Position numbers and translations under genes: made by a program. Below, one piece after another: positions 1 through 47,879 of a DNA stretch of 64,000 nt (the first letter of the stretch is position 1; every line of letters begins with the position of its first letter). The stretch covers positions 2,170,001-2,234,000 of the forward strand of contig OZ287075.1 in the NCBI GenBank assembly GCA_965645245.1, in the 5' to 3' direction. Below the pieces are notes generated by a model. It was not told the origin of the DNA, searched no databases, and worked only from the letters and a program-made list of their open reading frames with translations. This stretch comes from Massalongia carnosa. Lineage: Eukaryota.

Positions 1-1093
1 ATGTGGACCAGGCTTCATGGCCTTTTTCACTGCATGCAGCACATCTTCGGTATCTACCCGTCGTTTCCATGTTGCATTCGGTGCTGGGATGGCCCCCGGC
101 GCAGTGGCCACAGGCGGTAGGATTTGGACATGAGCGACCTATGTGACCGTATTTGTGACAGTTGAAGCATTGCGTCATGGTACATCCCTTGGTGAACCTT
201 TCACAATCTTTGATTTCATAGTCGACCACAAGGCCTTCGGCTATGATCCGGTTGGCCGTTTCGGCGGTTGCGACTTCCATATGTAGCGTAGAATACGTCT
301 TTTTTTCCCTTATAGCTTTGACGGACCAGGCTATTTTCTTGATCTTCAGGTTCGGGTGCAGACGTGCGTTAGCGGCCTGTAGGTACTCTATAGCCTGCGA
401 TTGGTTGGCGGTTTTGATATTTTCGACCTTGACACCATTTACCCTGATAGAGTACGTTCGTGTCTTTATCGCGGCTGATTCGGCTACAATTTGAACCCAC
501 TCCGGTTTCTCTTGTAGGAGCTTTTTGGCCTCTAAAGATTCGGTATGAATCTTGAGATCTCCGCTCATGAGACGTGATATTCCCCGAATCCCCTTCGTCT
601 CACGTTGTAGTGTCTCCACGAGATCTTTTGTTGTCACGTTCTTTACTTTTTCTTTGTCTATTGTGTTCGGAACGACGATGGTTATTTCCCTGGCCTTTCG
701 AATCTCTTGAGGCGAGGGCTCGGTGTGCTTTAAGTGTGCAGTTGGCTTCGTGCTACGTGGGACCGGTGGGGCTTGAGCGGCCTGGCCTCTGGTGGCAGCG
801 GCGGCGTAGTTATCCGAGTTTGTTGTGACTGCTTTTGCTCCTTCGATGCGAGCAAGGCTTTTCTGGATTTCTGTTAACGTGACGTTTAGAGTCTTCGACG
901 TCTTGTCATCGTCGTTGTCGTTGTCGAAATTTCTCTGATTTTCGAGAAAAATTTTCACTTCCTGCAGGACCATGGTCCCCTCCGGTTCACCCTCATCTCC
1001 TATTCCTACAAGATAATCATTTATCTTGTCCAGCAGATAATCTCTCTGCTGCGTGTGCGCGACCACGAACGATTCTTCGAATTCAGCGTTCAT
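1..1093 (-). mobile_element. LINE (Tad1-like) ORF1/gag with CCHC zinc knuckles, degenerate, runs off the window start
   Basis: Manual minus-strand translation gives QCFNCHKYGHIGRSC, CGHCAGGHPSTEC and CAACSEKGHEAWS, the triple zinc-knuckle typical of fungal LINE ORF1. In-frame stops are present upstream. Confidence 0.75.
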
Positions 1094-1410
1094 GTTGTTC
1101 CTTATCTCGTTAATATTGATATATTTTTCGAAGAGTCCGGGCTAAGAATGATAAAATAGAGTTGACATCTCCTTCGTGAAGTCTCTATCCCAGTTTTCGT
1201 TCATCTCACTGGTGCGTTTTACGGCCCAAGACTATTGATGAATTCTACGATTGGGGTGAACGACGTCCCTTTCGCCCAGGTCAAACCCAGTTTACTCCTT
1301 AAGCATATATCAAGGGCAAGTCTAGCCGTAGCCCATGCGCCGGCGAACCGACGGGGTCTCGTTACGAGCGAGATAGACATTCCCTGCTCTATATAAACCG
1401 ATCTATATTC

Positions 1411-1660
1411 TATATAGTACTGAAAGAGTTCCCCTGCTACTTTGGGCAACACTACCTCATTCGGTTAGATAAAACCTCATGCGGTTAGATTTAACCCGGA
1501 AAAGGGAACGCGGCTTGCGGAACAGTACTGAGTTATCTATTGTATATAGTACTGAAAGAGTTACCCTGCTACTTTGGGCAACACTACCTTATTCGGTTAG
1601 ATTGAACCCGAAAAAGGGAACGCGGCTTGCGGAACAGTACTGAATTATCAAATAATGCGG
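1411..1660 (+). repeat. Two tandem copies of a ~110-130 bp unit; third copy at 5352-5490
   Basis: Unit TATATAGTACTGAAAGAGTT(C/A)CCCTGCTACTTTGGGCAACACTACC...GGAACGCGGCTTGCGGAACAG starts at 1411, 1543 and 5352. Confidence 0.9.
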
Positions 1661-2035
1661 GGAGGACCTCCCTGCGGACAGGACCAAAAATTCCCCTCTT
1701 GCCTCGACCGTACCGGACCGTTTCACTTCGTCAAACTTCGGAGATCAACTGATCCTGTTGATATCAGTCCGTATCGCGAAAACTACGTTCTTTTACGTTC
1801 GTTGTGGGCCGCGAGAGGTGATCGTTGTTCGCGTTTTTCATGTTTTGATGTTCCCGAAAACTGCGCTAAATCCGTCCGTTCAATGAACCTGCGAAAACCC
1901 TCGATTTGGTTTAACGTAGTCTTAATTGGGTTTAGCATTAACAATTATCTGATCTCTTCGCAACAACAGCAACGACTACCGCTATATCTTTGCAGCCTAG
2001 CTCTTCTCCTCGAGAAATCGTTTCTCGACTTCCCA

Positions 2036-5000
2036 TTCCGTTACGACAATGGTGTTCTATCCGTAGACCGCATAATAAAGTGAATTCTCCGGAAAATCCT
2101 CCCGCAAAACGCGTTAGTCTAATCTTACGACCACCGAAAACGTTCTGTTAGTCTTTTCCTGCGTCCGCCTGCTCCTCCAAGAAGTTCGATTGTATCTCCT
2201 GTCACTCTTCTATCTTTGCAGAGTTCGCCTAACAGTTCAATAACGAATTCCGTTTCTCCCGTATCGTCGGCTTTCCACTCGCCAAGCCCGCCAAATCGAA
2301 ATGATTTGCAGTTGGAAAATCCGAACATTTGGGAAGAAATGCTGCTCAACGAAGCAGAAGCGGGTCAGTACAATCACAACCGAGCTCGCGGTTTCGTAAG
2401 GTCGAGTTTCGGACATATTTCTCCATCCATTGCGAGTTCCAGACCTGTTTCTCCACCTGTTAATCATCGTGAGTCACGAAGAAATCGTCGAACACGTCGT
2501 CGCGACCGTACTGTTGAAGCCCGTGACCATGCGGCTGCAAATCGTAACTTTCCTGCCGCATTTAAAAGTCAGTACACTTTAGAATCCGCGATACAACGAA
2601 TTCAACACATGACAGATCATTGCAGAAACTTGCGGTGCGTGGCATTGGGAAACGGAAGCTGTTCAGAGTGACAGAAGACGAGATCGAGTATAAAAATCCT
2701 GTTGCAAGCGAGGTGGTGTCGTGTTGCCACCGTTTCAGCCTCCTCCTGATTATTTACGGCAACTGTTAATTGGTGACGATATTAGAACCCGCACATTTCG
2801 CAAAAACCTCCGAAAATATAATTCCACGTTGACGTTCACCTCCGTAAACTACAAACCCGATCGCCGACTTCCTCGCAACGGTCGTGGACCGGTATGTTTT
2901 CAAAATCACGGAGAACTGTATCACCTGCAAGGTCCTTTGGATCCCGTTGACGATTCTCCTCGCTTTGCTCAACTGTTTTTTACGATCCCGACGAAGCAAC
3001 CGCGATTCGTACTCGACAACATACAGAATAGGATCCCGATATTGTACGACGTTTAACAGAGATGTTGCACAATATGAATCCCTTTATCAGGCTTTACAAA
3101 TCCGCCAGCGAGGCTTTGCGGGAGAATGCGGCCACAACCGATGATCGTCGTGTTACGGATCCTACGGCCTTATGGAATCGATACGCAAATGATATATATG
3201 ACGATTTACCGCATCGATTACGATCAATGACTGATGTTCCTGACGATTTAATGAGCCCGCATTTAGATTACGGCCTTTATTTGTTAAACGGAGGTCTTTC
3301 GGATTTAGGAAAACGATTAGAGGATTAGAATATGCCGCTGTTTACATACGATTGGGGTCGGAGTACTGGAAATCCGTTGATCGCAAATGAAATTGTGACG
3401 AAGCGAGAAGTAAATAGATTTCTACCATTGCGCCACCTGTCCTCCCGACCAAAAGGCACAATACTTAGTCCGCAGACCAAGCTCTATTCTACTATAACTG
3501 GGACTCCTGCTTTGTTCGCTGTAGGTCCTGCCGTCCGCACCACGCATGGTCGAACCGTTACAGAAATGACTTACGATTTCAACGAAGAAACGACGTTACG
3601 AAATGAACGATATACTCAATTGAATGCGGATCAAAAATACTGTTTTGATACCATTGTTGCGGGAGTTAGAGATTATCCTAGAATGGCGCATTTTTTTGTT
3701 CACGGACCTGCAGGAACAGGTAAGACTTTTTTATATTAGACTCTTTGCAATGATATTCGGGCGGAGAATAAAATCATTCTTTGCGTTGCGTCTCCCGGCA
3801 TTGCGGCTTTACTTCTTCCTAGCGGACAGACTTCACATTCCCGGTTGCAAATTCCTTTGATTTTAAATGAGGACAGCATGTGTAATATCACCCGCAACAC
3901 GCATTTACACTGTCTTTTGCAACGCACAGCCTTAATCATTGGGGATGAGGTGCCGATGCAACACAAACAATGCTTCATGGCCGTACATCGCACTTTTACG
4001 GACCTTTTAGGTAATGACGACCTTTCGGAGTAATTCCGATGGTGTTAGGCGGAGATTTCGCTCAAATCTTGCCCGTTGTTCCCCGTGGAAATCGGGAAGC
4101 CATCGTTGCGGCGAACATTCAAAACACCTTCTGTGGCCGCGATTTCAAAAACTGTTTTTGCGTCAAATCATGCGAATTCGTAACGAAGTCGCCAATGAGG
4201 CGTTTGCGGACTGGATCGGGAAAATGTCTTATGATCCTGCTTTTTCCGGTCGTGTTCAGCTACCGGAACAAGTCAATCAACTGAACAACTTAGACAGTTT
4301 CGTGGACACCGTTTTTCCTTCCGATCGCATGCGGCAAGCTCATCTGGATGCGGATTCTTTCGCAAGTCGAGCAATTTTGACTTTGCGGAACGATATCGTC
4401 GCGGAGTTAAACGGTGCAGTACTGAATAAATTGCAGGGCGGTTCGCACACCTTGAACTCCGTTGATCAAATAGAGAAAGATACGGCGCAGGAACGAGGAG
4501 ACTTTCTTCCTCCCGAGTTTTTACAACCCTTGCAAACATCGTCTATACCACCTTCACAATTGCAACTGAAACTTGGAGCCCGAATCATTTTTTTGCGGAA
4601 TTTGTATCCCAAACTTGGTCTCTGTAACGGCACCCGATTACGTCTTACTCACATTTCGCGGACCTGTCTAGAGGGAAAGATTTTGGGATAAGAATTCAAC
4701 GGTGAAACGCGATTAATTCCCCAGATTCTTCTTAATACCACGGAAGGCGAGTTGCCCTGGATCATAAGTCGCAAACAATTTCCGATACGATTGTGCTTTG
4801 CTATGACTGTCAACAAGTCGCAAGGTCGATCATTGGACACGATAGGAGTCGATTTGCGAGCTCCTCCTTTTACTCATGGTCAGTTATATGTGGCATTATC
4901 TCGAGTTATGGATGTGTCTCGATTGTGTATGTTGTTTCCGGAACGAAATGACTGGAAAACGGATAACATTGTATATCCGGAAGTAATTCTGCGATCGCAA

Positions 5001-5048
5001 CATGACATGATAACTCATGTTCCTCCGAATCCTGCTGTAAGTTTATGA
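2036..5048 (+). mobile_element. Helitron Rep/Helicase pseudogene (Pif1-family helicase), frameshifted, Rep domain apparently deleted
   Basis: ORF fragments contain FRKNLRKYNSTLTFTS, FAQLFF, FFVHGPAGTGKTF (Walker A), LIIGDEVPMQ, VLGGDFAQILPV, LRNL..GLCNGTRL, RKQFPIRLCFAMTVNKSQG and FTHGQLYVALSRV. Confidence 0.9.
3394..3562 (+). mobile_element. Solo LTR family 1 (~170 bp), TSD GAAAT
   Basis: TGTGACG...CGTTACA flanked by GAAAT at 3389-3393 and 3563-3567. Four more copies occur in the window. Confidence 0.9.
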
Positions 5049-5351
5049 TGATATAGGGTATCATGTCACTTAGAAAATGTATTCAATTGCAAAATAGAGA
5101 GCAAGTTTATTGTGTTATCAAAAATTTATCGTCCGGGTCATCAAGTGTGACATTTTCCGCTAATTTCGCAAGTCGTAAGTTTTAGAAATTTTAAGAAAAG
5201 TTTTCAATTTTTCGATTTCAATCCTGAAATTAAATAGATAATTTTGTATTGCATACGTGGTTTTAAATTTACAACCTTTTACGAATTGTATCGATCGTAA
5301 AAACTTGAAACCGGTTCCAAAATCTCAGTTCTGAGATGGCACGGTCTCGTC

Positions 5352-5490
5352 TATATAGTACTGAAAGAGTTCCCCTGCTACTTTGGGCAACACTACCTCA
5401 TTCGGTTAGATCAAACCTCATGCGGTTAGATTTAACCCGAAAAAGGGAACGCGGCTTGCGGAACAGAACTGAGTTATCCAATAATGCGGA
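5352..5490 (+). repeat. Third copy of the ~130 bp unit, downstream of the Helitron helicase
   Basis: Near-identical to 1411-1540. Confidence 0.9.
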
Positions 5491-6099
5491 GAGGACGCCG
5501 TACGGAAAGGACCAAAAAGAGGCACCTCATTGCGAGCATGCATTTCATCATATGATATCGTAAAACTTTGCAGACCTACTAATCACATCAACCATAGTCG
5601 ATATCTCGAAACTTGCGTGCTTTTTCGCCCGTTTGCGGTGGGGGGAGGAGGTCTCTTTGCGAAGCATCAGATTTTTGAAATCGTCCATAAGAGATTTAGC
5701 GCGGACTCGATCTCGATTGGGTTTACGGTGCTTTTCGTGTTATTTACCTATCATCGCAGCTCTTTTCATCCTAGCCTTTTCATCGCAGCTCCTTTCACCG
5801 CTGAATATCAACGTGAACTCGATACAGGAATATTAACGGAAGATACTTTGACGAAAAAAATTGACGATGATATAGATAAGACTCGAGACGGACGAGCTTA
5901 TAATCACGTCAAACGACATATAATAGAAAATCGGGTTGGAAGGGAGAAACGGAGTCGATTAATTTTACGCTTCTAGAGTGTCTCATTATCGACAGCTTCG
6001 AGAAAATAGACGAATTCAAGATGCACGAGACCAAAAAGCTAAAGAAGCTATGCGAAAAGCGGCGGAAAAAGAAAATTGATAACGAGGGAGATAGATATT

Positions 6100-6495
6100 G
6101 AGGCTATTCAAGAGGCTATCTGATAGCTATTTGGGAAACTATTTGGGAGACTATTTGAAAGGCTATTTGAAAAGCAGCGGAGATTATCTGGGAGACTATT
6201 TGGGAGGCTAATTGGAAAGCTATTTGGGAGGCTATTTGGGATATTATTTGATAGCTAAGCAGAATATCTGGAAGGCTATTTGGGAGGCTATTTGGAAGAC
6301 TATTTGAAAGCGGTGAAGATTATCTGGGAGGCTATTTGGGAGGCTTTATGCGAGGCTTTATGCAAGGCTATTTGAGATACTATCTGAAAAGCAGCGGAGA
6401 CTATTTGTGAGGCTATTTGATAGCTATTTGGGGGAATATTTGGGAGACTATTTGGGAGATATTTGAGAGATACTTGGAAGATAATTGAAAGGCTA
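6100..6495 (+). repeat. Degenerate 12-bp minisatellite (GGCTATTTGGGA)n, left part
   Basis: Many variants of GGCTATTTGGGA/GACTATTTGAAA. The array resumes at 7674-7860 after the LINE insertion. Confidence 0.85.
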
Positions 6496-7673
6496 TTGAT
6501 TGATTGATTGATTTTTCTTACGCCGATATGACACCAGCTGAAGCTGGCCCATGCGGGAGATACTACATAGGCTATATAAAGGCAGAAAACCCGAACGGGT
6601 AAAAAACTGCTCCTGCGTACCAGGTTTGTAGAGGACTCGCTCTTTCCCCGGGTTGATCTCTACGGTTTGGGAAACCCGCTATACCCGTTATGCGCCTGAG
6701 TAAGTGCAAGAATAAAAGAGAAGAAAAGAAAATAAGTAGAAGAAAAAACCAATTCTCCTCTCATTATTGCTCCGTCATTTGCGCGGCAATGGTGTACTGT
6801 GTTAGTATGCCCGTACGCATAAGCCATGCAGTGATTATTTTGATCGCTTTGGGGTCTGTTATCAGTTTTTGATAATCCAGCGAGCCAGCTGCACGCAACA
6901 TATCGATTCTATTATGCAATCCGCAGAACATTATCACATGTTTCGCCGTTTGAAAGCGGCTTCCGCACAGGCAGGCCGCGGACTCAATGTCTGGCACCTT
7001 GCGTTTGAATAGAAAACTCGCTAACCCGATTTTCTCTGTTCTAATTTGAATTGCGAGGGAGCTTTGCGCCTTATTCAGCAGCTTGTGCGTGTTCAACCTG
7101 TTTTTGTGCAATGGACCCGACTGTGCTATTGTTGGATCAAGCGTATGTATTGATTGATACGCTATCCATTTGTCCTTCCATTTTTCTTTAAATCGTTTCG
7201 CTATGATTCCGTCTCTTTCTCTTTGAAGTGCGGCATATTCTGCTCGTTTTTCCTCTTGTGCATTCTCCGCTTTTTCCCATGGTGGTGTGCGTTTGGGCTT
7301 TCTCTTTGTTGATACTTCAGCTGTCAGCTTGGCCACCCATCTCTGTCTACGAGCTCCCGGTGTTTCTCCAATAATCCGTTGTCGCCCTCTTTTCCCTTTC
7401 AATCTCGTTCTGATTTTCTCGCATGCCTGTTCTATGACTTTTGCCTGACCGTTGTGTTGTAGCCTCGATCTACCTTTGGCCTGCAGATGATCCAAATGTT
7501 GCGTCAATGGACAGATGAATGTTTCCGCCTGTAACACCTCGATGGGTGTGGCCCTGTACGCTCCGGCTACTACTCGTAAACATTTGTTTTGTACGATCTC
7601 GAGTTTGCTTTTCCTCGTGACTTTGACGTGCTTTTGTGTTTCCTCCGGCGTGTGCCATACCAGAGAACCATGG
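6496..7673 (-). mobile_element. 5'-truncated LINE (ORF2 C-terminus plus 3' UTR) with (TCAA)n tail and TSD
   Basis: ORF 6764-7537 has SLAIQIRTEKIGLASFL and CLCGSRFQTAKHVIMFC, a LINE C-terminal zinc finger. Tail TTGATTGATTGA at 6496. TSD AATTGAAAGGCTA at 6483 and 7674. Confidence 0.85.
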
Positions 7674-7860
7674 AATTGAAAGGCTATTTGGGAGGCTATT
7701 TGAAAGGCTTTTTGGGAGGCTTTTGGGAGGCTTTTGGGAGGCTATCTGGGAGACTATTTGAAAAGCAGCGGAGACTATTTGAAAGGCTATTTAGGGGCTA
7801 GATGTGGGGCCTTATAAAAATCAGCGGAGGCTATCTGGGAGACTATTTGGAAGATGCTTT
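7674..7860 (+). repeat. 12-bp minisatellite, right part
   Basis: Continuation of the GGCTATTTGGGA units. Confidence 0.85.
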
Positions 7861-8604
7861 GACAGATGCTTTGGCGGGTGCCAAGGAGGAGATAGCGTAG
7901 GGCCGTTGCGGAGCGAAGCGAAGCATGTCCGGAGCAGAAATCAGAGATATTTTGAGATTCGCATGAAAAAATAGCAAGCCAAATAGTAAGTAAATGAAAA
8001 GTAGTAGTAAATTAGATTTTTTCATTCGAAACATCTCAGGTCTGAGATGGCACTTTCTCGTATGCGCATACTGTCCTCTCGGGCTATGCAGACGGTCTCC
8101 GTACGGTGGCCGCCATTGCATACCACGCCTCACGGGTTTTTTACGCCCACTTCGCGTTATTCATAAAGGTCTCCCGTTTATGAACCGACCATGTCTCGCA
8201 GGGATTTCGACCACTATGCTCCTGACCAGGCAGTATAGTATCGATTTTCCGTCCCTACTAACCAAAACGAGTCGAGGACAACTCGGAGGGGTGCTCGTTT
8301 GAAATTCGTCTATTAGCTCAGGGCCTAGACTGTTCTCAATTAACGGGTTCCTCGTATATTGCCCTCTTCTTGTCCCAAGGGTGTCCTATTTGATGACTAG
8401 GTTGCCTCCACCATCCCCGGTACGACTCCGGTTCGGGCCGTGTTGCTCACGGTAGCCATCAATCGGATGGTTTTCATAACCCAAATCCCTTGTATCGTGT
8501 AGGGTGTGACCCTACACTATGTGTCTATATGTTTTATTTCTTTCAGCCGGAGGGCTCCGTGTTGTAGACGAAGGAGACCCGTGTGATAGACATAGCTGAC
8601 CCGT

Positions 8605-9354
8605 GTCGTACGTCTTTAGCTCTCAGCCGATGACTGCACGAAAGGACTTGAACCTTTAAGAGTATGACCGAACGTTGTTAACGAGGTCTATGAAAATCTT
8701 ATTAACGAGGTCTTCGAGAACAATATTAACGAAGTTCCGCTGAACTCTTTTCATTCGTTTTGTGATCCATCGAGGTCTACCCGTGTCAAATCCACACCAT
8801 GCCCGTGTCAAAATACATTATTTTCAGCTGATGACTGCTAGAAAGGACTTGAACCTCTAAAAATATGTACTCCGATATTAACGGGGTGCAGATCTGTCTT
8901 AACGAGCCCCCGCAGAACCCCGTTCACAGGGACGTGTTATTGATTTGTGACTGTGTTTTTTGTGACTGTGTGTTTTGTGACTGTGTGTTTGTGACTGTAT
9001 GTTTGTGACTGTGTGCTTTGTGACTGTGTGCTTTGTACAACGTGTGATTGATGACTATGTGTTTTGTGACTCTGTGTTTTCCTCGATTTTATTTAACAGA
9101 CCGGGCCTATTAAATGGGATATTGTTATTCTGCTCCGAGATGGAGTTTTCTTGAGGTGACAGCATTCGCCCCGGTGCCTTTACGCGTTCTGTTGATCCCA
9201 GCTGATGACTGCATGGGGAGACTTGAACTCTCAGGAGCTAGAACGCGTGTCGACTGTGCCCGGGTGGGGGATGATGCGGCTCCTTTGGTCCACATCTTCT
9301 TCCAGCTGATGACTGCATGAAGGGACTTGAACCCTTAGAAGCATGGTGCAGGGA
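8605..9354. ncRNA. Four copies of a putative structured motif: core CAGC(T/C)GATGACTGC-N2-GRRRRG-ACTTGAA-CYYY inside a variable closing stem
   Basis: Copies at ~8605-8668, 8814-8869, 9182-9248 and 9281-9354. Core is conserved. Closing stems differ in sequence yet pair (GTCGTAC/GTATGAC, TACAT/ATGTA, ACGCGTTCT/AGAACGCGT). Function and transcription are unknown. Confidence 0.45.
8944..9080 (+). repeat. ~14-15 bp tandem repeat (TTTGTGACTGTGTG)n
   Basis: About 8 imperfect units visible. Confidence 0.85.
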
Positions 9355-9496
9355 CGCGCGCATTCTACCCCCCGGCGGTTGGCCTTCGTATCCTCTTCCG
9401 TACGTACGTCTGCGACGCGTGTGAACGCGTTAAATTAGCATTGTTTTGATGCGAAGAGATAGGAGCAAATCTATATGTTTGACGGTCGCCCCACGG

Positions 9497-9622
9497 TGAG
9501 GACCGATGGTGTAGAAAGAGGAGGACCGATGGTGTAGAAAGAGGAGGACCGATGGTGTAGAAAGAGGAGGACCGATGGTGTAGAAAGAGGAGGACCGATG
9601 GTGTAGAAGGAGGAGGACCGAT
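9497..9622 (+). repeat. 23-bp tandem repeat GACCGATGGTGTAGAAAGAGGAG, 5 units plus a partial
   Basis: Units start at 9501, 9524, 9547, 9570, 9593 and 9616 (partial). Confidence 0.95.
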
Positions 9623-9625
9623 CTG

Positions 9626-11148
9626 CTGCTTTCCTGTATGGCTTCCTAGATGAAGCCATATATGTCATACAACCCACCTTGTTCGAAAAAGGGGAGAACA
9701 AGGTCTGCTTACTACGAAAGGCCCTATATGGCCTAAACAATCCCCTCGTGTATGGTACCAGACCCTGCAAGATTTTCTGCAAAAGATGGGGTTTAAACGA
9801 ACAGATTCGGATCATGGAGTCTTTGTATCGGACGATATCTTTATAGCGATTTACGTTGACGACCTTCTCATCTTCGGAAAAGACACTTCAAATTGCAGCA
9901 ATTGCAACACGAATTGAAGTCCCGTTTCCGCATGACGGACTTGGGAGAAGTCTCCCATTATCTGGGAATGGAAGTCGATGTCAACATCGAAAAATCGGTT
10001 ATAACTCTTCGACAAACAACTTACCTGAAGAAGGTGCTGCAGCGATTTAATATGGTCGACTGCAGGCCCATTTCCACCCCCATGGACCCCGGTGCCGGAA
10101 ACACACTCATGCCGTCGGATGACCAGGCCGACAAGGAAACAATTACCTGGTACCAGTCGGTGGTGGGCTCGCTGATGTGGCCAGCCATGCATACACGCCC
10201 CGACATCGCTTATGCAGTGGGAGTACTGAGTCGATATTGTTCGAACCCAGGCCCATTACACTGCAAATATCTTCAGCGCATTATGCGCTATATATCCAGT
10301 ACCCTAAATACAGGCCTCGTGTTTAGAAAAGACACCGAGGATGACATTGTGGGATACTCGGACTCAGATTATGCTGGAACGAAAGATGGGAGAAAATCGA
10401 CCGGGGCCTATACGTTTTTGTTAGCAGGCGCCCCAATTTCTCACTGTTCCAAGCTACAACCTACCGTCGCCCTATCCACCTGCGAGGCCGAATATATGGC
10501 CCTGACGGAAGCAGCTAAAGAGGCCATTTGGTGCGCGCGATTTCTGGCCGAGTTAGGATATCGGAAGAAGGACACCCCTGTCCTACTTCGAGGGGACAAT
10601 CAAGGGTCAATTGCATTGGCTGAAAACCCCGAATTCCACCGTCGACCAAGCACATCGAAATCAAATGGCATTGGATCAGGGAGGTGGTTGAATTGGGAAG
10701 GGTAAGCATCAAGTTTATCCCTACCACAGAGATGGTGGCAGATGGGCTTACAAAGCCACTGGCCGCTAAACCCTTTGAGGACTTTAAGTCAATGCTTGGC
10801 ATGGGCTAAACCCAAAGAGGCAAAATAATCCGGAAAGCCTCAAGATGGCTGAATGGGAGTGTTGAATGTTAGATGATGAGGTCACCATCATCATGGGCAT
10901 CCATCATGAGCCTCGGGAGGTGCCTTGCAAAGTGCCTAAACAAGCAGAGATGAGAGACAAGGTCTGACCGTCAGGGGACAAGGTCTGACCGTCAGGAGGA
11001 CAAGGTCTGACAGTCAGGGGGACAAGGTCTGACCTCCTAGATGTGACTGTTTTGTGACTGCTATATAAAGCAGACAAATAGCCCAATAGCTAATCACCTT
11101 CAATGACAATCATGCTACTATACCTACAAAGTGAATTTATATTTCATA
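9626..11148 (+). mobile_element. 3' portion of a Copia retrotransposon (RT/RNase H, PPT, 3' LTR 10860-11148), same family as 38084-50894
   Basis: LRKALYGL, IYVDD, TRPDIAYAV and GYSDSDYAG motifs, with two 1-bp deletions relative to the right copy. LTR TGTTGAATG...TTTCATA matches 38084-38330 apart from extra ~21-bp repeat units. Confidence 0.95.
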
Positions 11149-38083: not shown

Positions 38084-41000
38084 TGTTGAATGTTAGATGA
38101 TGAGGTCACCATCATCATGGGCATCCATCATGAGCCTCGGGAGGTGCCTTGCAAAGTGCCTAAACAAGCAGAGATGAGAGACAAGGTCTGACCGTCAGGG
38201 GGACAAGGTCTGACCTCCTAGATGTGACTGTTTTGTGACTGCTATATAAAGCAGACAAATAGCCCACATAGCTAATCACCTTCAATGACAATCATGCTAC
38301 TATACCTACAAAGTGAATTTATATTTCATAGGTTATGAGCCCGGCTCACTTCTACTACGTTTGAATAAGCCCCTACATTGATTGTCAAACAAACTCACCT
38401 CCACCTCTTCCACCTACCTCATTCTATATTATATATATATATTCCTTTTCATATCCCACTTCAAAATCCAAGCAACCAAAGGGACCCTCTTTTTTCCCCG
38501 CTCAGTAACCCCTACTCCTAAGCACGATGGCCAAAGGTGAGAGTCTATACACATTCCCAAAGCTAATGGGGAGTGGAAACTATAAGAAATGGTCCAGAGA
38601 CATGGCCTTCGCCCTGCAGGAGGCGGAACTTTGGAACTACGTGACTGGTGCTCGAAAAATGCCTCGAGAAATTCCCCCTCCACCTCAAAAAGCTGATGAG
38701 ACACCCCCGGAGGAAACAGAGGAACAGCTAGAAAAGCGGGACAAACGGGACCTTGAACGCCTAGAGTTCTCGGAGAAACAAAGGAGAGTAGTTGGTAAAA
38801 TAGGCAAGATGTGCACAGATGACGTGCAACAGGAATTCTTGTCGATGAGAGACCTAGCCAGTGGGGGCATCTGGGACCCGAAGGACCTTTGGGAACACCT
38901 GAAAACCCGATACACCCTCAGAAATTGGAGTGCGAAATGGAGCACATTCAACCGGCTGGAGGAGATAAACTATGAAAAATGCAAGACCATCGAGGAGTAT
39001 GGTAGCCTAGTCAGGGATATCAAGGCCGAAATCACCGACATGGCCCTGACCGTTGAGCACATTGTAGTGCTCAAACTCCTCAATGGACTCGGCAGTTCAT
39101 TCAACACCTACCTGACCTTCCTGAACGAACAAGCTCGGCGGGAGTACAAATTCTCGGCGTTGGATGACTTACTAAAAAACCTGGAGGACGAGGAGGCTCG
39201 TATGCGCCAGGACCCTGTCGCCGTAGCTAACATGCTGAAGGCAAAGGGGAAGAAGAACCCCACCGAACAGGGTAAGACCAAATACAAATGCTGTGGTTAT
39301 AATCACTCCGGAAAATGCAGGCATAGCAACGCTACATGTAGGAAGTGTAGTAAGATTGCCCATCTGGAACGCGTTTGTGAAAGCAAAGAAGGTAATGAAA
39401 CCTCAAACCCCCAAATAGTTTGTACAATAAGGGAATGTTCCGGGAAAAGAACCCAGGAAACACCGCTTATTTGTATGGCAAATCTGTACCGAGGTCCCAA
39501 GAATGCCCACGATCTATTGATCGACTCCGGTGCCACCGCACACATTATATGCAATAAAGATCTCTTTCAAGAAGGGACCTTTCGGAGCGAAAATAGCTGT
39601 TTAGAAACAGGTTCCGGAGAGGTGTTATCGACAGAGGGGAAAGGCTCTCTACTCGTATCACTGGACAATGGAAATGGAGGTGTAACGGATCTCATTTTGA
39701 CCAACGTCCTTTTCGCCCCCGACCTAAAATTCAACCTCATCAGCACAATACAACTCGGCAAAAAGGGCATATCTACGTACCTGATGGCGGATGACAAGCC
39801 CGCTCAACTGGTGCATAAAGGAAAGGTGGTTGGACTGGCCAAAACAATAAATAATCAGTGTGTTTTGCAGACAACCACTATTAGCCCTACCGAAGCACGG
39901 GCCCTCACCACCACAAACGGTACAAAGGCCCCTATCCAAACATGGCACGAACGACTCGGCCATCTCAGCTACCCAAACCTCCTAAAATTAAATCATTTAG
40001 CCAATGGAGTCACCATCGAAGGACCCATACCAGAAGAAGTATGCGGCTCATGCATGATGGGAAGACAACAGCGGAAAATAAATCGCACTCCACGAACCCG
40101 AGCAACAGAATTTCTCGGAATAGTGCATAGCGACTTAGGGGGACCATTTCCACTGACAAGGTTCGGTGAACGTTTTTATGCTACGATGAAAGACGACTCC
40201 TCCGGGGTAGTGTGGATCTACCTGCTGAAAACAAAGGGTCAAACCTTCGAATGTTTTAAGAAGTTCAAGACATGGATAGAAAATCAATCGGGAAAGAAAA
40301 TAAAGAGACTCCGAGCTGATGGAGGAGGGGAGTACACCAGTGGTGACTTCCAGGAAGTCCTAAAGAGTGAAGGCATCCAGTGGGAGGCCCGGGCACCAAA
40401 TGTGCCAGAACAGAATGGGAAGGCCGAAAGGCAAAATTATACCCTCATGGTCCCCACTCGGTCCATGATGAAGGCTAAAAAGCTCCCAAAGTCCCTTTGG
40501 GGGGAGGTCCTGAAGACGGCCGGGTACATCAAGAATAGAAGTCCCGGGGTCGACGAGGTCACTCCATATGAACGCATGAATAATGCGAAACCCTTCCTCG
40601 GCCACATGAGAACGGTCGGGGCTAGGACGTGGGTACATATCCCAAAAGAGAAGCGCAAGAAGCTGGACGATAGGTCCTGGCAGGGGATATTGGTTGGGTA
40701 TGAAGGAAACAATCAGTATCGAATTTACGATCCTCTCACTGGAAAAGTCCATGTTTGTCGCGATATCACCGTCGACGAAGGTAATATATATGATTCCAAG
40801 GACAAAAAGGCCTGGGACCTAGCCGACATTCCATGGGAGGGAGACGATGATGCTTTGTTTGATGACCCAGATGATTTTGTTGATGAAAACAAAAGTCATA
40901 ATCCGCCATCTTCGTTGTCTCCGAAAACTCCGAGCTCTGAAATATCGAGAAGTTCGGAAGTTCAAAATGAAACGGCCCCACCAGCACCACGGATAGTGCT

Positions 41001-42200
41001 ACATCCAATGGGAGTAAATGCTTCGGGGGGAGGCCGAGAAGAGGAGAATGGGGGGGAGAGTGACTCCGATGAAGTGGAGGACATTCCTCGCCAGCCCATC
41101 GAACCTCGAAGATCTGGACGAATAAGGGTCCCCAGTCAAAGAGCACTGGAGAACATTCGTCCCAGCATCAACACCGTATTCAGTTCAAACCAGGTCCCGA
41201 AATCCCATGAGCACATGGTGCGGGTGCTAGCAACCCTGGCAGGAGGCGAGGACAATGAGGGCCTCGATGATCCTTTGACACTGAAAGAGGCTATGTCCTC
41301 ACCCCACTGGGATCAATGGAGAAAGGCCATGGAGACCGAGTATCAATCGCTAGTGGAGAATGAAACTTGGACACTAGAAAGGGCACCGACTGATCGAAAG
41401 GTGATCACCGGTCGCTGGGTGTTCAAAGTAAAGAAAGACAGAGATGGTAAAGTACTGAAGTACAAAGCGAGATGGGTAGTTCATGGCTATAAACAAAAGG
41501 AAGGCCTGGACTACCTCGACACCTTTGCCACAGTGGTAAAACCAGTCTCTTATAAGGCATTGATGGGAATCAGTGTAAAGAAGGGACTGTCCATTCATCA
41601 CATAGATGTGGTCACTGCTTTCCTGTATGGCTTCCTAGATGAAACCATATATGTCATACAACCCACCTTGTTCGAAAAAGGGGAGAACAAGGTCTGCTTA
41701 CTACGAAAGGCCCTATATGGCCTAAAACAATCACCTCGTGTATGGTACCAGACCCTGCAAGATTTTCTGCAAAAGATGGGGTTTAAACGAACATATTCTG
41801 ATCATGGAGTCTTTGTTGTCATGGAGTGACTGGGCACCTGCCAGTTAGTTCATTGAATCAACCTTAGCTGCTTGAACGAAGCACTAGCCGGTTAGCCGAT
41901 CCGAAAGGAACTAAGCTTAATCCGGTTCAAAGGTAAGTGTTCCGACTATCAATAGTGTCATGGCGATAGTTTCATGCTAGGGACTTAGGGAAATTGGATC
42001 AACGGCTGGATTGGGACTAGTTCCGTTCGCCAGAGTCTTATACTCGCCCACGTTGGATTTTCTGTTTCTTTTCTCCTTGTCGAACGTCTTGTCCACCTAG
42101 CTAGACAATCAAGTAACACGTTTGCACCACCTGAATTCCTACCTGACCTCGCACCGTGACACTACGTTCGACCTGCCTATTCACCTGGTGCATCACCATC

Positions 42201-43355
42201 ATGTCCATCAACCTCGACCCCCCTATCTCCGTTTCCAACGCCGACGAACTGAGAACTGCCGTGCAGCAACAGCCACAGGCATGGCTCGAGTTCCTTCTTC
42301 GCGTCACCAACTTCTCGGCCAATGCTCAGGAACTTATCACCACTTTAGAGACCGACAAAGCAACTGCACTATCTTCCCTTGAGCAGGTTAACATCACTCT
42401 GTCCGAGAATGCAATCACCATGGCCGCTGGACAAGCTGTCATAGACGAACTTCGCACCAATCTGATCGATGCCTCGCAGTCTAAGTCACATCGTTCTACC
42501 AAACATCCGGACCCATCTTCCTTTGGTGGCGATAAGGCAGAACTTCGGGGATGGATGACGCAACTCCGAATAAAGCTGAACATCAACAAGGACCACTATC
42601 CCACCGAGCAAAGCAAGCTCGCTTATGCACTAAGCCGCTTGAAGGAGAGAGCATTGGAACAACTGCAGCCGTACCTGGAAAAAGATGGAAATATCGCTCT
42701 TGTCGATATGGAAGCGTTTTATACAAAATTGCAATTGGCCTTCGGTGACCCCGATAGAAAAGCGACAGCACAAAGGGAACTGCGACAGCTTCGACAAAAG
42801 AATAAAGAGTTCTACCTATACCTATCAGATTATCAACGTCTCGTTCCAGACACAGGCTTCGATGATGAAGCCAAGCGATCCATTCTCCTAGATGGTCTCA
42901 GTGATGAGTTGAAATCTGCTCTCATCACGGTTGACCTACCCCCGTCGTTGGACGACACCATACAAGTTCTCCAGAAAATTGATAATCGATTCCGTTCCGT
43001 CCAGGCCTCAATCCGCAAACCATTTTCATATGGTTCATCTCGCTCTTCCTCCGCCCCGTCCACCCCGACTACCAAGACCTCTTCCACCTCCACCTTCAGC
43101 ACTCCCGCTCCTAGGCCCGCAATCACCCCATCCGCAGACACGGACGCCATGGACCTGTCGACCTCCAGGCGTCGCGGTCCCATCACCCCGGCGGAAAGAT
43201 CACGCCGCATGAACGAAGGACTATGCATGTACTGTGGAGGATCAGGACATTTCGCCAATTCCTGCCCAGCCTCCAAGGGAAAACCTAGAGTGAGGACATA
43301 TGAACTGAGCACGGTGACTTCGGAAGAGGAGGGAAAAGTTCAGTCTTCGGCCTAA
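42201..43355 (+). CDS. gag: Gypsy Gag
   Basis: Retrotransposon gag domain, DAMDLS motif, CMYCGGSGHFANSC knuckle. First ATG at 42201. Confidence 0.9.
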   Translation: MSINLDPPISVSNADELRTAVQQQPQAWLEFLLRVTNFSANAQELITTLETDKATALSSLEQVNITLSENAITMAAGQAVIDELRTNLIDASQSKSHRSTKHPDPSSFGGDKAELRGWMTQLRIKLNINKDHYPTEQSKLAYALSRLKERALEQLQPYLEKDGNIALVDMEAFYTKLQLAFGDPDRKATAQRELRQLRQKNKEFYLYLSDYQRLVPDTGFDDEAKRSILLDGLSDELKSALITVDLPPSLDDTIQVLQKIDNRFRSVQASIRKPFSYGSSRSSSAPSTPTTKTSSTSTFSTPAPRPAITPSADTDAMDLSTSRRRGPITPAERSRRMNEGLCMYCGGSGHFANSCPASKGKPRVRTYELSTVTSEEEGKVQSSA

Positions 43356-43370
43356 GTCGCGGCCGAAGAC
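43331..43370 (+). promoter_or_regulatory. Predicted -1 ribosomal frameshift signal
   Basis: Heptamer G GGA AAA in the gag frame, 5-nt spacer, 10-bp perfect hairpin GTCTTCGGCC/GGCCGAAGAC. The -1 frame is open into pol. Confidence 0.8.
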
Positions 43371-46300
43371 AAAAAGAAACTATTTCGATTTCGGCATTTT
43401 CCTTGTCCAAAGAACCTCTATCCGAAGAATATTTGGATGGAAGGCATTTGGTTGTGTCTCTTGTTGTTTCCATAGGAACAATCAGAATCAAGACTTATGC
43501 ATTGATTGATTGTGGAGCATCTGGATTTGCCTTTGTTGATTCCTCGTTCGCGCACCATCATCGCATACCCCTCGCCCTCATGAAGAACCCTCGTATTCTT
43601 GAACTCGCAGACGGCCGTCCCGTGTCGTCTGGAAAGCTTACTCACCTCGCCCGTCTGAACCTTGACATCGCCTCGCATTCCGAACCCGCTAACCTTCTCG
43701 TCACCAGCCTCGGTCACTATCCCATCGTTCTCGGCATTAAATGGCTGCAAATTCACGACGTCAGCATACGATGGGCCATGAACTCTCTCACTTTCAACTC
43801 ACCTTACTGCCGTCAGCACTGTCTTGACAACTCCGAGTCAAACACGGTCATCGGCATAACCAACGTTCCAGAACTCCGCGCTGAAAAACCCCTCGTAGTT
43901 GAAAGCAGCGCTAGTACCGACTTGACTGCTGCAATCACCGAAGACCCTAGTCCCGAAGCGGTTAGATTTAACAGGCCCGGCCGGTTAAATCGGCGCGTTA
44001 ATTCAAAATCGATCGCGATCGCCGCCTCGCCCATCTTGCCTCCGACCTTGCCCGTTTCGCCTATCTTGCCTTGGACTTCACCCGTCCCGTCCCTGCTCGT
44101 TCCGCCGCCGACCCATAAGAATCCACCATTGAGCATATGTATGATAGGGGCAGCCCCCTTTACCCGTCTAGCGAAGAAGAAGGAGTGTGAACTCTTTACC
44201 GTGAACATGAGAGACATTGAACATTCCTTGAACCCTAAGCCGGAAGTTGATCCCGCTACAGTGTTGCCATCGGAATATCATGAATTTCTTGATGTATTTT
44301 CCAAGAAAGAAGCTGATAAACTTCCGGGGCGACGTAGCCATGATCATAAAATTCCGTTGATGAATGGAAAGGAACCCACGTATGGCCCGTTATATGGCAT
44401 GAGTCGAGATGAACTGTTAGTTCTACAGAAGTATCTGACGGAAAACCTGAAGAAGGGTTTTATTCGGTCCAGTTCTTCCCCTGCTGCGTCCCCGGTGTTG
44501 TTCGTTAGGAAACCAGGCGGAGGCCTGCGTTTTTGTGTTGATTACAGAGCATTAAATGCGATAACGATCAAGAACAGATACCCCCTACCTTTGATCAGAG
44601 AAACCTTGGACCGCTTGAGTAAAGCAGTTATCTTTACTAAGTTGGATATTGTCGCGGCCTTCAACCGTCTCCGTGTAGCTCATGGAGAGGAATGGAAGAC
44701 TGCCTTTCGAACACGCTATGGATTATATGAATATCTCGTCATGCCGTTTGGACTCTGTGGAGCCCCATCTTCGTTTCAGGAGTACATTAATGATGTGCTT
44801 CGTGAATATCTAGACATCTTCTGCACCGCGTACATCGATGACATATTGATTTACAGCAATTCCCTGAAAGAACACAAGGATCATGTGAGAAAAGTGCTGA
44901 TGGCCTTACAAAAGGCCGGATTACAACTCGACATCTCAAAGTGTGAATTCCATGTCACGGAGACCATTTACTTAGGGTTAATAATATCCAAAGATGGTAT
45001 AAGAATGGACCCTAAGAAAATTGAAACTATTCAGAATTGGAACACCCCCGAGAACCTCAAGGACGTGCAGGCCTTCATAGGATTCGCGAATTTCTATCGT
45101 CGATTTGTCAAGGGTTTCTCTCGTATAGCCGGACCATTGACTGCTATGTCAAAAAAGAAGATACCATTCGTATGGACCGATGACTGCGCCAAGGCCTTCG
45201 AAGATCTGAAGGCTATGTTCACTAGTGACCTTGTTTTGCTGCATTTTGACCCTGATAAGGAAAGCGTGGTTGAAACTGACTCTTCCGATTATGTCAATGC
45301 CGGAGTCCTCTCACAGTATGATGACGATGGAGTCCTTCGCCCCGTAGCCTTTTTCTCGCGACGTTTGTCACCGGCAGAGTGCAATTACGAGATTTATGAT
45401 AAAGAACTGTTAGCCATAATACGTGCCTTCGAGGAATGGAGACCAGAACTTCAGGGAGCCGCCTACCCGGTCAAGGTAATCACTGATCATAAAAACCTGG
45501 AGTATTTCACCACCACCAAGCAGCTAAGCAGGCGACAGGCCCGCTGGGCAGAATATCTCTCACGTTTCGACTTCAAAATCACGTATCGACCCGGCAAATT
45601 AGGCGGAAAACCTGACGCTTTGACTAGAAGATCAGGAGATCTTCCTAAAGAAGGGGACGTGAGACTAGAACATCAGAATCAGGTGGTATTAAAACCGCAT
45701 AATTTTGAACTTCATGCTAACAACGTGCCTCGTGTGACTGACGTGTCCGACTCTGAACCTGACATCGCACCTGACATCGCACCTGACATCGCCATTGAAC
45801 CATCGAATCTCGCCCCTGCCCTCGACTCGGAAGACAAATCTATAGACGAACTCATTGATCTAGGATATGAACATGACCCCACGCCTAACAAAATCCTGAC
45901 CCTTCTCCGAAACGGTGCTCGACACAGCAAGGACATCACCCTAGCCGAATGCGAAGACAGGAATGGAAGACTATACTACAAGGAAAGGCTTTATGTCCCT
46001 GATTGGCATGAACTAAAAATGAGACTATGCAAGGAATATCACGACAGCCCAGTCGCCGGCCATCCAGGCAGATCTAAAACATTTAGTCTGATGGCGCGAG
46101 ACTACTACTGGCCCCGATATCATCAGTTCATTGCTCGCTATGTTCAACACTGTCATACATGCTCTCGCAGTAAAGCTTCCCATCATGCCAAGTACGGAGT
46201 GTTAAAACCTTTGCCCGTTCCCCAACAACGATGGAAGGACATATCTATGGATTTCGTTACCGGCCTACCCGAAAGTAGTGATAAAAACGCCGTGCTAAGC

Positions 46301-47320
46301 GTTGTTTGTCGACTAACCAAGATGAAGCACTTTATTCCCTGCAGAGAAACCACCGACGCTAAGGCCTTGGCTAGACTATACGTTGAACATGTCTGGAAAC
46401 TTCATGGCCTACCCGACTCCATTGTGTCGGATCGAGGAGGCCAGTTCATAGCTGACTTTTGGAAAGCACTATGTGAACGACTAAGGATCAACAGTCGGTT
46501 ATCTACGTCGTTTCACCCGGAAACTGACGGTCAAACGGAACGTTATAATGCAGTCATGGAACAATACCTCAGAAGCTATGTGTCTTATCAACAAGATGAT
46601 TGGACCGACTGGCTACCCATGGCTGAATTCGCTAGTAATAACTCCGACTCCGAGACAACGTCCGTCAGCCCATTCCTTGCCAACTATGGTTTCCACCCCC
46701 GTCTTGGTTTTGAACCTGTTCATCGCGACTCCCCCAATGCCTATGTCATTAGCGCTGACGAATTTGCTTTCAAAATGGAAAGTATCAGTGAACACCTCGG
46801 CGACGAAATGCGCCTAGCTCAAGCACGTTACGAAGCATCTGCTAATGCAAGTAGGACCCCGGCTCCTATGTTTCAGATCGGTGACGAGGTCTGGTTGGAC
46901 GCTCGACATATAAAGACCAAACGGCCATCGCGAAAGTTGGACTGGAAAAAGCTTGGAAGGTTCACTATAAAGAAAGTTGTCAGCAAGTACGCATACGAGT
47001 TAGACCTTCCCGCCTCCATGAACGTTCATCCTGTGTTCCATGTCTCCCTCCTAGAACCTGTCTCTCAACACCCCCACGTCGGCCACATACCCGCTCCTTC
47101 CCCTCCTGTCGAAGTTGAAGGTGAAACGGAGTGGGAGGTCGAGGAAATTTTGGACTCTCGTTTCTTCCGAAGACGTTTACAGTACCTAATCAAGTGGACT
47201 GGTTGGGACGCACCCGACTGGACCGAAGCTAAGGACGTCACCCACTGCTCCGACCTATTGGAAGACTTTCATCGACTGAGGCCTACCAAGCCCGGTGGTC
47301 CTCGCGGAGCTCGGACCTAA
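43331..47320 (+). CDS. pol: Gypsy Pol (PR-RT-RNase H-IN-chromodomain)
   Basis: ALIDCGAS, YIDDILI, ETDSSDY, HPETDGQTER and the chromodomain WEVEEILDSR..YLIKWTG. Confidence 0.95.
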   Translation, partial: GKSSVFGLSRGRRQKETISISAFSLSKEPLSEEYLDGRHLVVSLVVSIGTIRIKTYALIDCGASGFAFVDSSFAHHHRIPLALMKNPRILELADGRPVSSGKLTHLARLNLDIASHSEPANLLVTSLGHYPIVLGIKWLQIHDVSIRWAMNSLTFNSPYCRQHCLDNSESNTVIGITNVPELRAEKPLVVESSASTDLTAAITEDPSPEAVRFNRPGRLNRRVNSKSIAIAASPILPPTLPVSPILPWTSPVPSLLVPPPTHKNPPLSICMIGAAPFTRLAKKKECELFTVNMRDIEHSLNPKPEVDPATVLPSEYHEFLDVFSKKEADKLPGRRSHDHKIPLMNGKEPTYGPLYGMSRDELLVLQKYLTENLKKGFIRSSSSPAASPVLFVRKPGGGLRFCVDYRALNAITIKNRYPLPLIRETLDRLSKAVIFTKLDIVAAFNRLRVAHGEEWKTAFRTRYGLYEYLVMPFGLCGAPSSFQEYINDVLREYLDIFCTAYIDDILIYSNSLKEHKDHVRKVLMALQKAGLQLDISKCEFHVTETIYLGLIISKDGIRMDPKKIETIQNWNTPENLKDVQAFIGFANFYRRFVKGFSRIAGPLTAMSKKKIPFVWTDDCAKAFEDLKAMFTSDLVLLHFDPDKESVVETDSSDYVNAGVLSQYDDDGVLRPVAFFSRRLSPAECNYEIYDKELLAIIRAFEEWRPELQGAAYPVKVITDHKNLEYFTTTKQLSRRQARWAEYLSRFDFKITYRPGKLGGKPDALTRRSGDLPKEGDVRLEHQNQVVLKPHNFELHANNVPRVTDVSDSEPDIAPDIAPDIAIEPSNLAPALDSEDKSIDELIDLGYEHDPTPNKILTLLRNGARHSKDITLAECEDRNGRLYYKERLYVPDWHELKMRLCKEYHDSPVAGHPGRSKTFSLMARDYYWPRYHQFIARYVQHCHTCSRSKASHHAKYGVLKPLPVPQQRWKDISMDFVTGLPESSDKNAVLSVVCRLTKMKHFIPCRETTDAKALARLYVEHVWKLHGLPDSIVSDRGGQFIADFWKALCERLRINSRLSTSFHPETDGQTERYNAVMEQYLRSYVSYQQDDWTDWLPMAEFASNNSDSETTSVSPFLANYGFHPRLGFEPVHRDSPNAYVISADEFAFKMESISEHLGDEMRLAQARYEASANASRTPAPMFQIGDEVWLDARHIKTKRPSRKLDWKKLGRFTIKKVVSKYAYELDLPASMNVHPVFHVSLLEPVSQHPHVGHIPAPSPPVEVEGETEWEVEEILDSRFFRRRLQYLIKWTGWDAPDWTEAKDVTHCSDLLEDFHRLRPTKPGGPRGART

Positions 47321-47879
47321 AAGGGGAGCTGGTGTCATGGAGTGACTGGGCACCTGCCAGTTAGTTCATTGAATCAACCTTAGCTGCTTGAACGAAGCAC
47401 TAGCCGGTTAGCCGATCCGAAAGGAACTAAGCTTAATCCGGTTCAAAGGTAAGTGTTCCGACTATCAATAGTGTCATGGCGATAGTTTCATGCTAGGGAC
47501 TTAGGGAAATTGGATCAACGGCTGGATTGGGACTAGTTCCGTTCGCCAGAGTCTTATACTCGCCCACGTTGGATTTTCTGTTTCTTTTCTCCTTGTCGAA
47601 CGTCTTGTCCACCTAGCTAGACAATCAAGTAACACGTTTGCACCACCTGAATTCCTACCTGACCTCGCACCGTGACATTTGTATCGGACGATATCTTTAT
47701 AGCGATTTACGTTGACGACCTTCTCGTCTTCGGAAAAGACACTTCAAATTGCAGCAATTGCAACACGAATTGAAGTCCCGTTTCCGCATGACGGACTTGG
47801 GAGAAGTCTCCCATTATCTGGGAATCGAAGTCGATGTCAACATCGAAAAATCGGTTATAACTCTTCGACAAACAACCTA

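Follow-up and report, generated by a model that had tools for sequence, protein, structure and literature searches.

The stretch analysed here, hereafter the window, is a 64,000-nucleotide (nt) segment of contig OZ287075.1 of Massalongia carnosa (assembly GCA_965645245.1, positions 2,170,001 to 2,234,000). Between its positions 8605 and 9354 the original prediction had noticed four copies of a motif with covarying hairpin stems, an invariant ACTTGAA loop and an outer stem of different sequence in each copy. These copies, which we call modules, sit in the 5' untranslated region (UTR) of a non-long-terminal-repeat retrotransposon of the long interspersed nuclear element (LINE) type, which lies on the minus strand; this UTR leads into its first open reading frame (ORF1, 1141..2). 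On the plus strand, copies 1 to 4 of the 44-nt unit occupy 8623-8666, 8824-8867, 9198-9241 and 9302-9345. A 25-nt pattern with up to three mismatches matched four times where no match was expected, and none of 100 dinucleotide-preserving shuffles gave any match, which confirms the four copies. Their plus-strand stems read AAAGG/CCTTT, AAAGG/CCTCT, GGGAG/CTCTC and AAGGG/CCCTT around the loop ACTTGAA. The folds bore out the outer stem as well, its sequence differing between all four copies: it is long and A/U-rich in copy 2 and consists of CGCGUUCU/AGAACGCG in copy 3. Neither the pattern scan nor the covariance model (R1) found a further copy in the 64-kb window. On the minus strand, copies 1, 2 and 4 share the hairpin reading GGTTCAAGTCC, and copy 3 has AGTTCAAGTCT. 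At position 8639 a C is private to copy 1 of the window, the contigs of all four sequencing runs compared with it having a T; the family consensus of copy 1 is thus CTGCATG, as in copies 3 and 4.

The extent of the LINE leader could be read from the contigs of these four runs (X1, X3, X6 and X7), which were aligned to positions 7000-10500 of the window. This stretch is contained in runs labelled lichen metagenome and in several organisms listed under codes, and 4488 contigs of X1 were placed on the whole of it. The contigs of X3, X6 and X7 all depart from the window at 8062 into an identical 30-nt continuation, and an X7 contig departs at 9622 into unrelated DNA. As the continuation matches 1373-1402, the DNA between 1403 and 8061 is an insertion, and the distal and proximal parts of the UTR are joined on the strength of this match and of the coincidence of both insertion edges with the junction in other genomes, which is good evidence although not proof. 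We therefore read 8062-9622 plus 1142-1402 as the LINE 5' UTR (Table 1), about 1.87 kb if the first in-frame ATG of ORF1 is used. At its extreme 5' end, the copy number of a 23-nt repeat differs between runs, with joints that omit 88 or 120 bases or step back by 115. ORF1 has two complete cysteine-histidine knuckles (CX2CX4HX4C and CX2CX3HX4C) and the beginning of a third. It gave no Pfam match at E 0.01 and is 31% identical over 138 amino acids (aa) to the ORF1-like stretch of a related metagenome locus, L011 (E 1.7e-16). The inserted block has a content of its own: a 130-nt repeat (1409-1537, 1538-1649 and 5350-5478), fragments of a Helitron-type helicase frame (2694-5048, with PF02689 and UvrD_C_2 matches on 4692-5048) and, on the minus strand, a LINE C-terminal fragment (6764-7741) flanked by tandem repeats of about 25 nt (6100-6497 and 7674-7867).

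Table 1. Features of the LINE leader and its insertion, in window coordinates (R1, covariance model of the module; P1 to P3, stems of the module)
Feature	Coordinates	Strand	Basis or remark
LINE ORF1 (gag-like), open to the window edge	2..1141	-	Translation; first in-frame ATG at 1093
Proximal part of LINE 5' UTR, adjoining ORF1	1142..1402	-	30-nt continuation matches 1373-1402 with 2 mismatches
Block inserted in LINE 5' UTR, 6.7 kb	1403..8061	.	Helitron-type helicase fragments, 130-nt repeat, 5'-truncated LINE C-terminal fragment
Distal part of LINE 5' UTR, discrete repeat unit	8062..9622	-	Run contigs: common left junction at 8062, 5' end on the right near 9622
Module copy 1, last in LINE sense	8610..8672	-	R1 60.8 bits; P3 loop variant CAUCG
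Two 24-nt repeats with TTAACGAGGTC box	8675..8722	.	CUCGUUAA in LINE sense; precedes many modules in related loci
Module copy 2	8811..8873	-	R1 62.7 bits; P2 AGAGG/CCUUU, one G.U in sense
Between modules 2 and 3, about 9 units of a 15-nt tandem repeat (TGTGACTGTGTGTTT-like)	8938..9094	.	Length varies between runs
Module copy 3	9185..9247	-	R1 61.2 bits; P2 GAGAG/CUCCC, one A.C in sense
Module copy 4, first in LINE sense	9289..9352	-	cmsearch R1 62.5 bits, E 1.5e-21
23-nt tandem repeat, about 5.4 units, extreme 5' end of LINE	9498..9622	.	Repeat search and run contigs

Relatives of the module were found in metagenomes. An exact scan, with both conserved blocks fixed and the stem left free, listed 35 rows that represent 34 distinct loci (L017, L018 and L032 overlap or duplicate other loci); the same pattern had no match in a prokaryote genome collection, which the tool describes as covering 185,579 species, and none in viral contigs. 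A relaxed regular expression returned 83 instances, the four of the window included, which reduce to 63 distinct 150-mers in 35 clusters and to 49 distinct 63-mers. The covariance model built from these instances, a step that the original prediction had proposed for the four copies, gave 87 matches in 32 sources and added diverged copies with a P3 loop CACCG. Homology to LINE proteins (tblastn, E <= 1e-5) was present in 17 of the 32 sources, that is 16 loci and the window, and in all 17 it lay downstream of the modules on the strand of the GGTTCAAGTCC reading; the remaining 15 are mostly short contigs without LINE homology. In L005, four modules are followed on the same strand by an apurinic/apyrimidinic endonuclease (APE; PF14529, E 4e-18) and a reverse transcriptase (RT; RVT_1, E 1.2e-25). 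L008 carries RVT_1 and RNase H, so that PF14529, PF00078 and PF00075 occur across these two loci, and the order in L011 is modules, ORF1-like frame, APE and RT. The parts of a LINE, an ORF2 with APE, RT and RNase H and a gag-like CCHC ORF1, are thus found across L005, L008, L011 and the window. The host would belong to the Tad1/I-type LINEs, a label that we infer from domain content. Over 239 aa, the RT of L005 shares only 44% identity with that of L008, and yet the exact core occurs in both elements; the module therefore spans well-diverged LINE lineages.

A 5' UTR holds from one to four modules. In one family (contig names JAABU...) they are arranged as 183-nt tandem monomers with one module each, and a copy has two or three such monomers and a diverged one; several copies of this family diverge from L028 at one point, about 5091-5100 in L028 coordinates. 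Many related copies have the leader fused straight onto the central or C-terminal portion of ORF2, as in L001, L002, L007, L008, L012, L013 and L019, and likewise in L021, L022, L028, L029, L033 and L034. These copies are non-autonomous deletion derivatives in which the leader and the 3' end have been retained. The 'non-coding mobile unit' in which the motif had been placed is instead the 5' UTR of a protein-coding LINE together with its deletion derivatives.

In the sense of the LINE, the module is a 63-nt three-way junction composed of a variable outer stem (P1), an invariant U, a first hairpin (P2), a 4-nt linker, a second hairpin (P3) and, directly after it, the closing strand P1'. P1 has about four base pairs (bp), a small internal loop and then 4-7 bp more. 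P2 has 5 bp, a G-C closing pair and the loop UUCAAGU, the linker is mostly CNNG, and P3 is a 4-bp stem (CAGU/GCUG) under a 5-nt loop that begins with CA, typically CAUCA. Copy 4 of the window accordingly reads P1, U, P2 (AAGGG-UUCAAGU-CCCUU), CAUG, P3 (CAGUCAUCAGCUG), P1'. In the ungapped alignment of the 49 distinct instances, 80.6% of the cells assigned to pairs are paired, against 70.7 +/- 0.8% after shuffling (reached in none of 500 shuffles) and 42-52% with slid partners. The covariation score is 0.444, against 0.259 +/- 0.013 (again 0/500) and 0.13-0.25, respectively. Double changes are seen in 16 of the 20 pairs. Pairing reaches 97.1% in P2, where G-C and A-U replace each other at four of the five pairs. 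In P1, all 11 pairs show double changes; only 66% of its cells are paired in the gap-free register because a small internal loop is usual after four pairs. P3 is nearly invariant, with a C-G to G-C switch in two copies of L030. The 49 instances contain 27 distinct P2 and 42 distinct P1 stems, and a P1 strand forms a more stable duplex with its own partner than with that of another instance (-11.6 versus -7.2 kcal/mol, p ~1e-8, 35 cluster representatives). RNAalifold recovered the inner four pairs of P1, P2 and P3, with double changes in 9 of 13 pairs. The selection on a three-way-junction structure that the original prediction had postulated thus holds strongly on this larger alignment. The loop TTCAAGT is found in 46 of the 49 instances and the closing G-C pair in all of them.

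We also noted in this alignment that P2 consists almost wholly of purines on its 5' strand and almost wholly of pyrimidines on its 3' strand (columns 16-20 and 28-32). The covariation consists nearly entirely of transitions along G-C, G.U and A-U, and the inner P1 strands are biased in the mirror-image way. A path through wobble intermediates is the sole explanation that we can offer.

Which strand carries the structure can be told from its wobble pairs. The non-Watson-Crick pairs of P2 are G.U on the LINE-sense strand in 27 cases and on the other strand in 4, the inner four P1 pairs give 13 versus 3, and P3 contains a U.G pair in 49 of 49 instances; on the plus strand the LINE-sense G.U pairs become A.C mismatches. 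The outer part of P1 has no such bias. In the window, the strand of the T-loop, that is of the P2 loop read as UUCAAGU, is also the strand of ORF1. A LINE is copied through its sense RNA, and the module is therefore necessarily part of that RNA. Together with the G.U bias, this means that the structure belongs to the minus strand and not to the strand with CUGAUGA. On these sequence comparisons we hold it very probable that the module is a selected RNA structure of the sense strand in the LINE leader.

The similarity of the minus-strand hairpin to a tRNA T-arm or a B box, which had been pointed out from the start, proved to be exact. As in a T-arm, P2 has a 5-bp stem, a G-C closure and the loop U-U-C-A-A-G-U, in which U1 and A5 are placed for a reverse-Hoogsteen pair; U1, A5, pyrimidine-rich positions 2-3 and Watson-Crick closure, the marks of the T-loop motif, are present at the level of sequence only. 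GUUCNANNC within a hairpin is reported as the code by which TRUB1/Pus4 recognises mRNA targets (PMC5340967). The P2 loop fits this target code, and its DNA reads GGTTCAAGTCC. Unlike a tRNA, the module has no cloverleaf, A box or CCA end.

We propose that the module would be a cis-acting platform for protein recognition in the sense leader, mimicking a tRNA T-arm, in which two short hairpins with fixed loops are held side by side on a variable stem. Such a platform might recruit a host reader of T-arms (modifiers of the Pus4/Trm2 type, tRNA export or elongation factors) or the proteins of the element's own ribonucleoprotein (RNP). Multiple copies would then provide avidity and an insurance against 5' truncation. 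The modules are flanked by short CUCGUUAAUA and ACACGGGC boxes that have the look of promoter-type repeats, and the DNA of the same repeats, with these boxes, is probably part of an internal promoter. The binder of the module and the effect of binding are what we infer here from an observed structure, strand, LINE 5' UTR context and conservation. Taken as a whole, with its firmer and weaker parts blended, this explanation seems to us reasonably probable. The T-arm-mimicking platform in particular is put forward tentatively, from likeness of sequence. Somewhat more doubtful still is the idea of a new class of T-arm-mimicking modules, present several times in the leaders of fungal LINEs, that would capture either the host T-arm machinery or the element's own RT RNP, the latter through an RT-bound junction resembling CR4/5 of telomerase RNA.

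Several observations weigh against these proposals. The module is known from DNA, all compared runs being contigs. Folded one at a time, on either strand, the four window copies show no unusual stability (z -1.8 to +1.2). Since the scan pattern fixed both loops, their invariance arises partly by construction, the stems and P1 having been left free. Many instances are paralogous (L002 and L028 are 99.99% identical), and the shuffle control ignores relatedness. P1 as a whole has no strand bias, with 46 versus 43 in the ungapped register and -11.6 versus -11.4 kcal/mol. In the module, it is the 5' strand of the T-arm that connects to P1, a mirror image of the tRNA topology, so that enzymes that read the whole acceptor/T helix may reject it. 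Finally, the flanking boxes and the tandem-monomer layout also fit a promoter role of the loops at the level of DNA only.

The last of these points leads to the alternative that survives best, although we regard it as unlikely, namely that the conserved loops serve an internal promoter or enhancer monomer as binding sites for transcription factors, and that the pairing of the RNA is secondary or incidental. This alternative includes a reading of P2 as a B box of RNA polymerase III (Pol III) that TFIIIC would bind and that would act as a boundary or as a site of the 'extra TFIIIC' type. GGTTCAAGTCC indeed fits the B-box consensus, GGTTCGANNCC. The modules lie in repeat units, such as the 183-nt tandem monomers of the JAABU loci, in a layout that recalls the promoter monomers of mouse L1, and the adjoining short boxes (CCCGTGT and TTAACGAG) also occur without the fold. 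A double-stranded site, however, gives no reason for the compensatory changes in P1 and P2, nor for a 27:4 excess of G.U pairs on one strand. The A box has the consensus TRGCNNAGTGG, with the B box 30-60 bp downstream; by eye, the alignment contains no A box, only a TGGC about 20 nt upstream, which is too near. Moreover, some modules contain T runs, such as the UUUUU of P1 in copy 2 of the window, that would stop Pol III.

As to the boxes themselves, CCCGTGT and TTAACGAG(G/T), seen at 8557-8600, 8675-8722 and 8780-8815 of the window and in related loci, flank many modules and recur also without a fold. In the LINE sense they read ACACGGG and CUCGUUAA, and they may be factor-binding sites of an internal promoter. 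No complementarity was seen between the two.

A role in RNA processing, also raised by the original prediction, appears very unlikely. On this reading the module would trim the transcript of the LINE, either as a self-cleaving ribozyme of a new kind or as a tRNA-like signal that RNase P or RNase Z recognises. What invites the reading is that conserved nucleotides occur in a three-way junction within the 5' UTR of a LINE, and tRNA-like shapes are able to recruit RNase P or RNase Z. There is also a precedent at LINE 5' ends in the hepatitis delta virus (HDV)-like ribozymes of R2, RTE and L1Tc (PMC3185411). In the module, however, the conserved letters are in the hairpin loops and not at the junction, whose CNNG linker has 11 variants in 49 instances, and P1 and P2 offer no free helix end 12 bp from the loop. 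No Rfam ribozyme matched at E <= 10 in 8000-10000 or at E <= 1 in ten related loci. Sequence upstream of the modules is inherited, along with all modules in series. Genomic copies retain 271 nt upstream of the first module in the window family and about 850 nt in the 183-nt-monomer family; an X6 contig spans 8062-9510 through all four modules, and in 5 of the 12 other loci compared with L028 (the near-identical twin L002 being set aside) homology starts 840-860 nt upstream of the first module. The RNA that was copied was therefore not cut at the modules. Obligatory cleavage or processing at the module is, on this sequence evidence, unlikely; a fraction of the transcripts may still be cleaved.

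Still less weight falls on the view that the LINE leader contains, embedded and decaying, either a small gene of Pol III or the head of a short interspersed nuclear element (SINE) derived from a tRNA. The T-arm/B-box sequence is present, and tRNA-like pieces do occur in mobile elements, both in SINEs and in the Helenus miniature retrotransposons with terminal repeats (TRIMs) (PMC10886601). ARAGORN, however, found no tRNA gene in the whole window, and the Rfam tRNA model had no match in 8000-10000 at E <= 10. An A box, a D arm and an anticodon arm are all missing, compensatory change maintains the stems, which are not decaying, and the module is always in the LINE sense (17 of 17).

The hammerhead-type ribozyme suspected on the plus strand can be given practically no credence: CUGAUGA does lie inside a three-way junction in three of the four window copies, but the core C3-U4-G5-A6-N7-G8-A9 is not kept (CUGAUGA in 34 of 49 instances, the others including CCGAUGA, CCGGUGA, CAAAUGA, CUAAUGA and CUGUUGA, with U4 or G5, positions essential in hammerheads, changed and the fold retained), no stem II follows the box (CUGCNNG, 7 nt, is followed by the 5-bp hairpin and then by A and the outer stem), there is no conserved GAAA, and on the plus strand the 27 G.U pairs of P2, like the U.G that is invariant in P3, become A.C mismatches. 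The Rfam hammerhead models had no match in the window at the gathering score, in 8000-10000 at E <= 10 or in ten related loci at E <= 1. The Rfam search that had been recommended thus returned, over the window, 8000-10000 and ten related loci, no family match beyond chance level. Its weak match to the Streptococcus small RNA SpR10 (8242-8285, minus strand; 24.8 bits, where the gathering score is 50, with E 0.0084 over 2 kb) is taken as chance.

Four further candidates were rejected. A C/D-box small nucleolar RNA reading of the plus-strand UGAUGA failed, by eye, for want of a consistent D box or terminal stem. For a likeness to the Alu domain of the signal recognition particle (SRP), the alignment failed structurally and Rfam gave no SRP match. 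As an anticodon arm, P3 has no U33 in its sense loop, and its antisense fits Y-U-NNN-R-N with only 3 bp. An antisense ORF from the AUG in CUGAUGA meets a stop, by eye, after three codons in copy 4.

The surroundings of the LINE are transposon-dense eukaryotic DNA, with polyproteins of copia and gypsy elements, a transposase of Tc5 type and a DIT1 gene that is split. A copia element has an intact gag-pol frame of 1106 aa at 38509-41829; its continuation, to 47678-50736, is interrupted by a gypsy element with a chromodomain integrase (42147-47320) and by a Tc5-type DDE transposase (48010-49755, minus strand). A second, 5'-truncated copia copy (9626-11148) starts at 9626, exactly where the 5' end of the LINE abuts. 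The DIT1/PvcA-family gene (PF05141; 12696-14411, minus strand) is among the few non-transposon genes of the window and lies in two frames, presumably split by an intron.

The 14-nt core was not found on either strand in the literature searched, nor was any description of such an element, subscription journals and Repbase lying outside that search. The module is a member of no family among those that could be tested and is a new RNA motif of a known general kind, that of structured cis-elements and tRNA mimicry in the leaders of retroelements. These results point to an undescribed control element of these retrotransposons in lichen-type fungi. To our knowledge, little is known of the role of the long leaders of fungal LINEs, and the module is a compact RNA element with clear covariation in such leaders. 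That it is kept despite RTs only 44% identical, and also in short non-autonomous derivatives, argues that it marks something the retrotransposon needs. In lichen and soil fungal genomes, the covariance model could provide a hallmark by which this LINE lineage and its derivatives are annotated. Should the T-arm mimic or an RT-bound module prove true, fungal non-LTR retrotransposons would have in it their first defined structured element of the 5' UTR.

Among known systems, the module has in common with the HDV-like ribozymes of R2, RTE and L1Tc ('Pr77'; PMC3185411) and with the R2 5' RNA, which binds the R2 protein, that it is an RNA structure conserved in the leader of a LINE. Like them, it has been retained by deletion derivatives that are non-autonomous, and it may share their double life as promoter DNA and as structured RNA. 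Unlike these ribozymes, the module is not at the first nucleotides of the element but starts 271 nt (window family) or about 850 nt (183-nt-monomer family) inside it, has no nested double pseudoknot and occurs in several copies per element; the Rfam models HDV, CPEB3 and drz had no match in 8000-10000 (E <= 10) or in ten related loci (E <= 1). The monomers of the mouse L1 5' UTR are another case of tandem units at a LINE 5' end, comparable to the 183-nt units with one module each, whereas the four modules of the window family are dispersed. Mouse L1 monomers are known as promoter DNA, and we know of no covarying RNA fold in them. The hammerhead has in common with the module a three-way junction and, on the plus strand, CUGAUGA, but its core and stems are missing and the structure belongs to the other strand. 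With tRNA-derived SINE heads and TRIMp3 (Helenus) the module shares tRNA-like sequence in a retroelement (PMC10886601); these have a whole tRNA-like unit and a Pol III promoter, whereas the module has the T-arm only, in a new junction and in a Pol II-type LINE leader.

The CR4/5 region of telomerase RNA (P5/P6/P6.1), present in vertebrates and filamentous fungi, is a three-way junction of short helices that ends in a 4-bp stem with a 5-nt loop; the RT that binds it is related to those of non-LTR elements (PMC4993307). The module also has three short helices and a final 4-bp stem with a 5-nt loop, a resemblance of shape only; it lacks the invariant A between the hairpins, where it has the CNNG linker, and the loop sequences differ. 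By analogy, the likeness is only a lead. If the module does capture the RNP of its own RT, it would suggest a possible link between LINE RNPs and the architecture of telomerase RNA.

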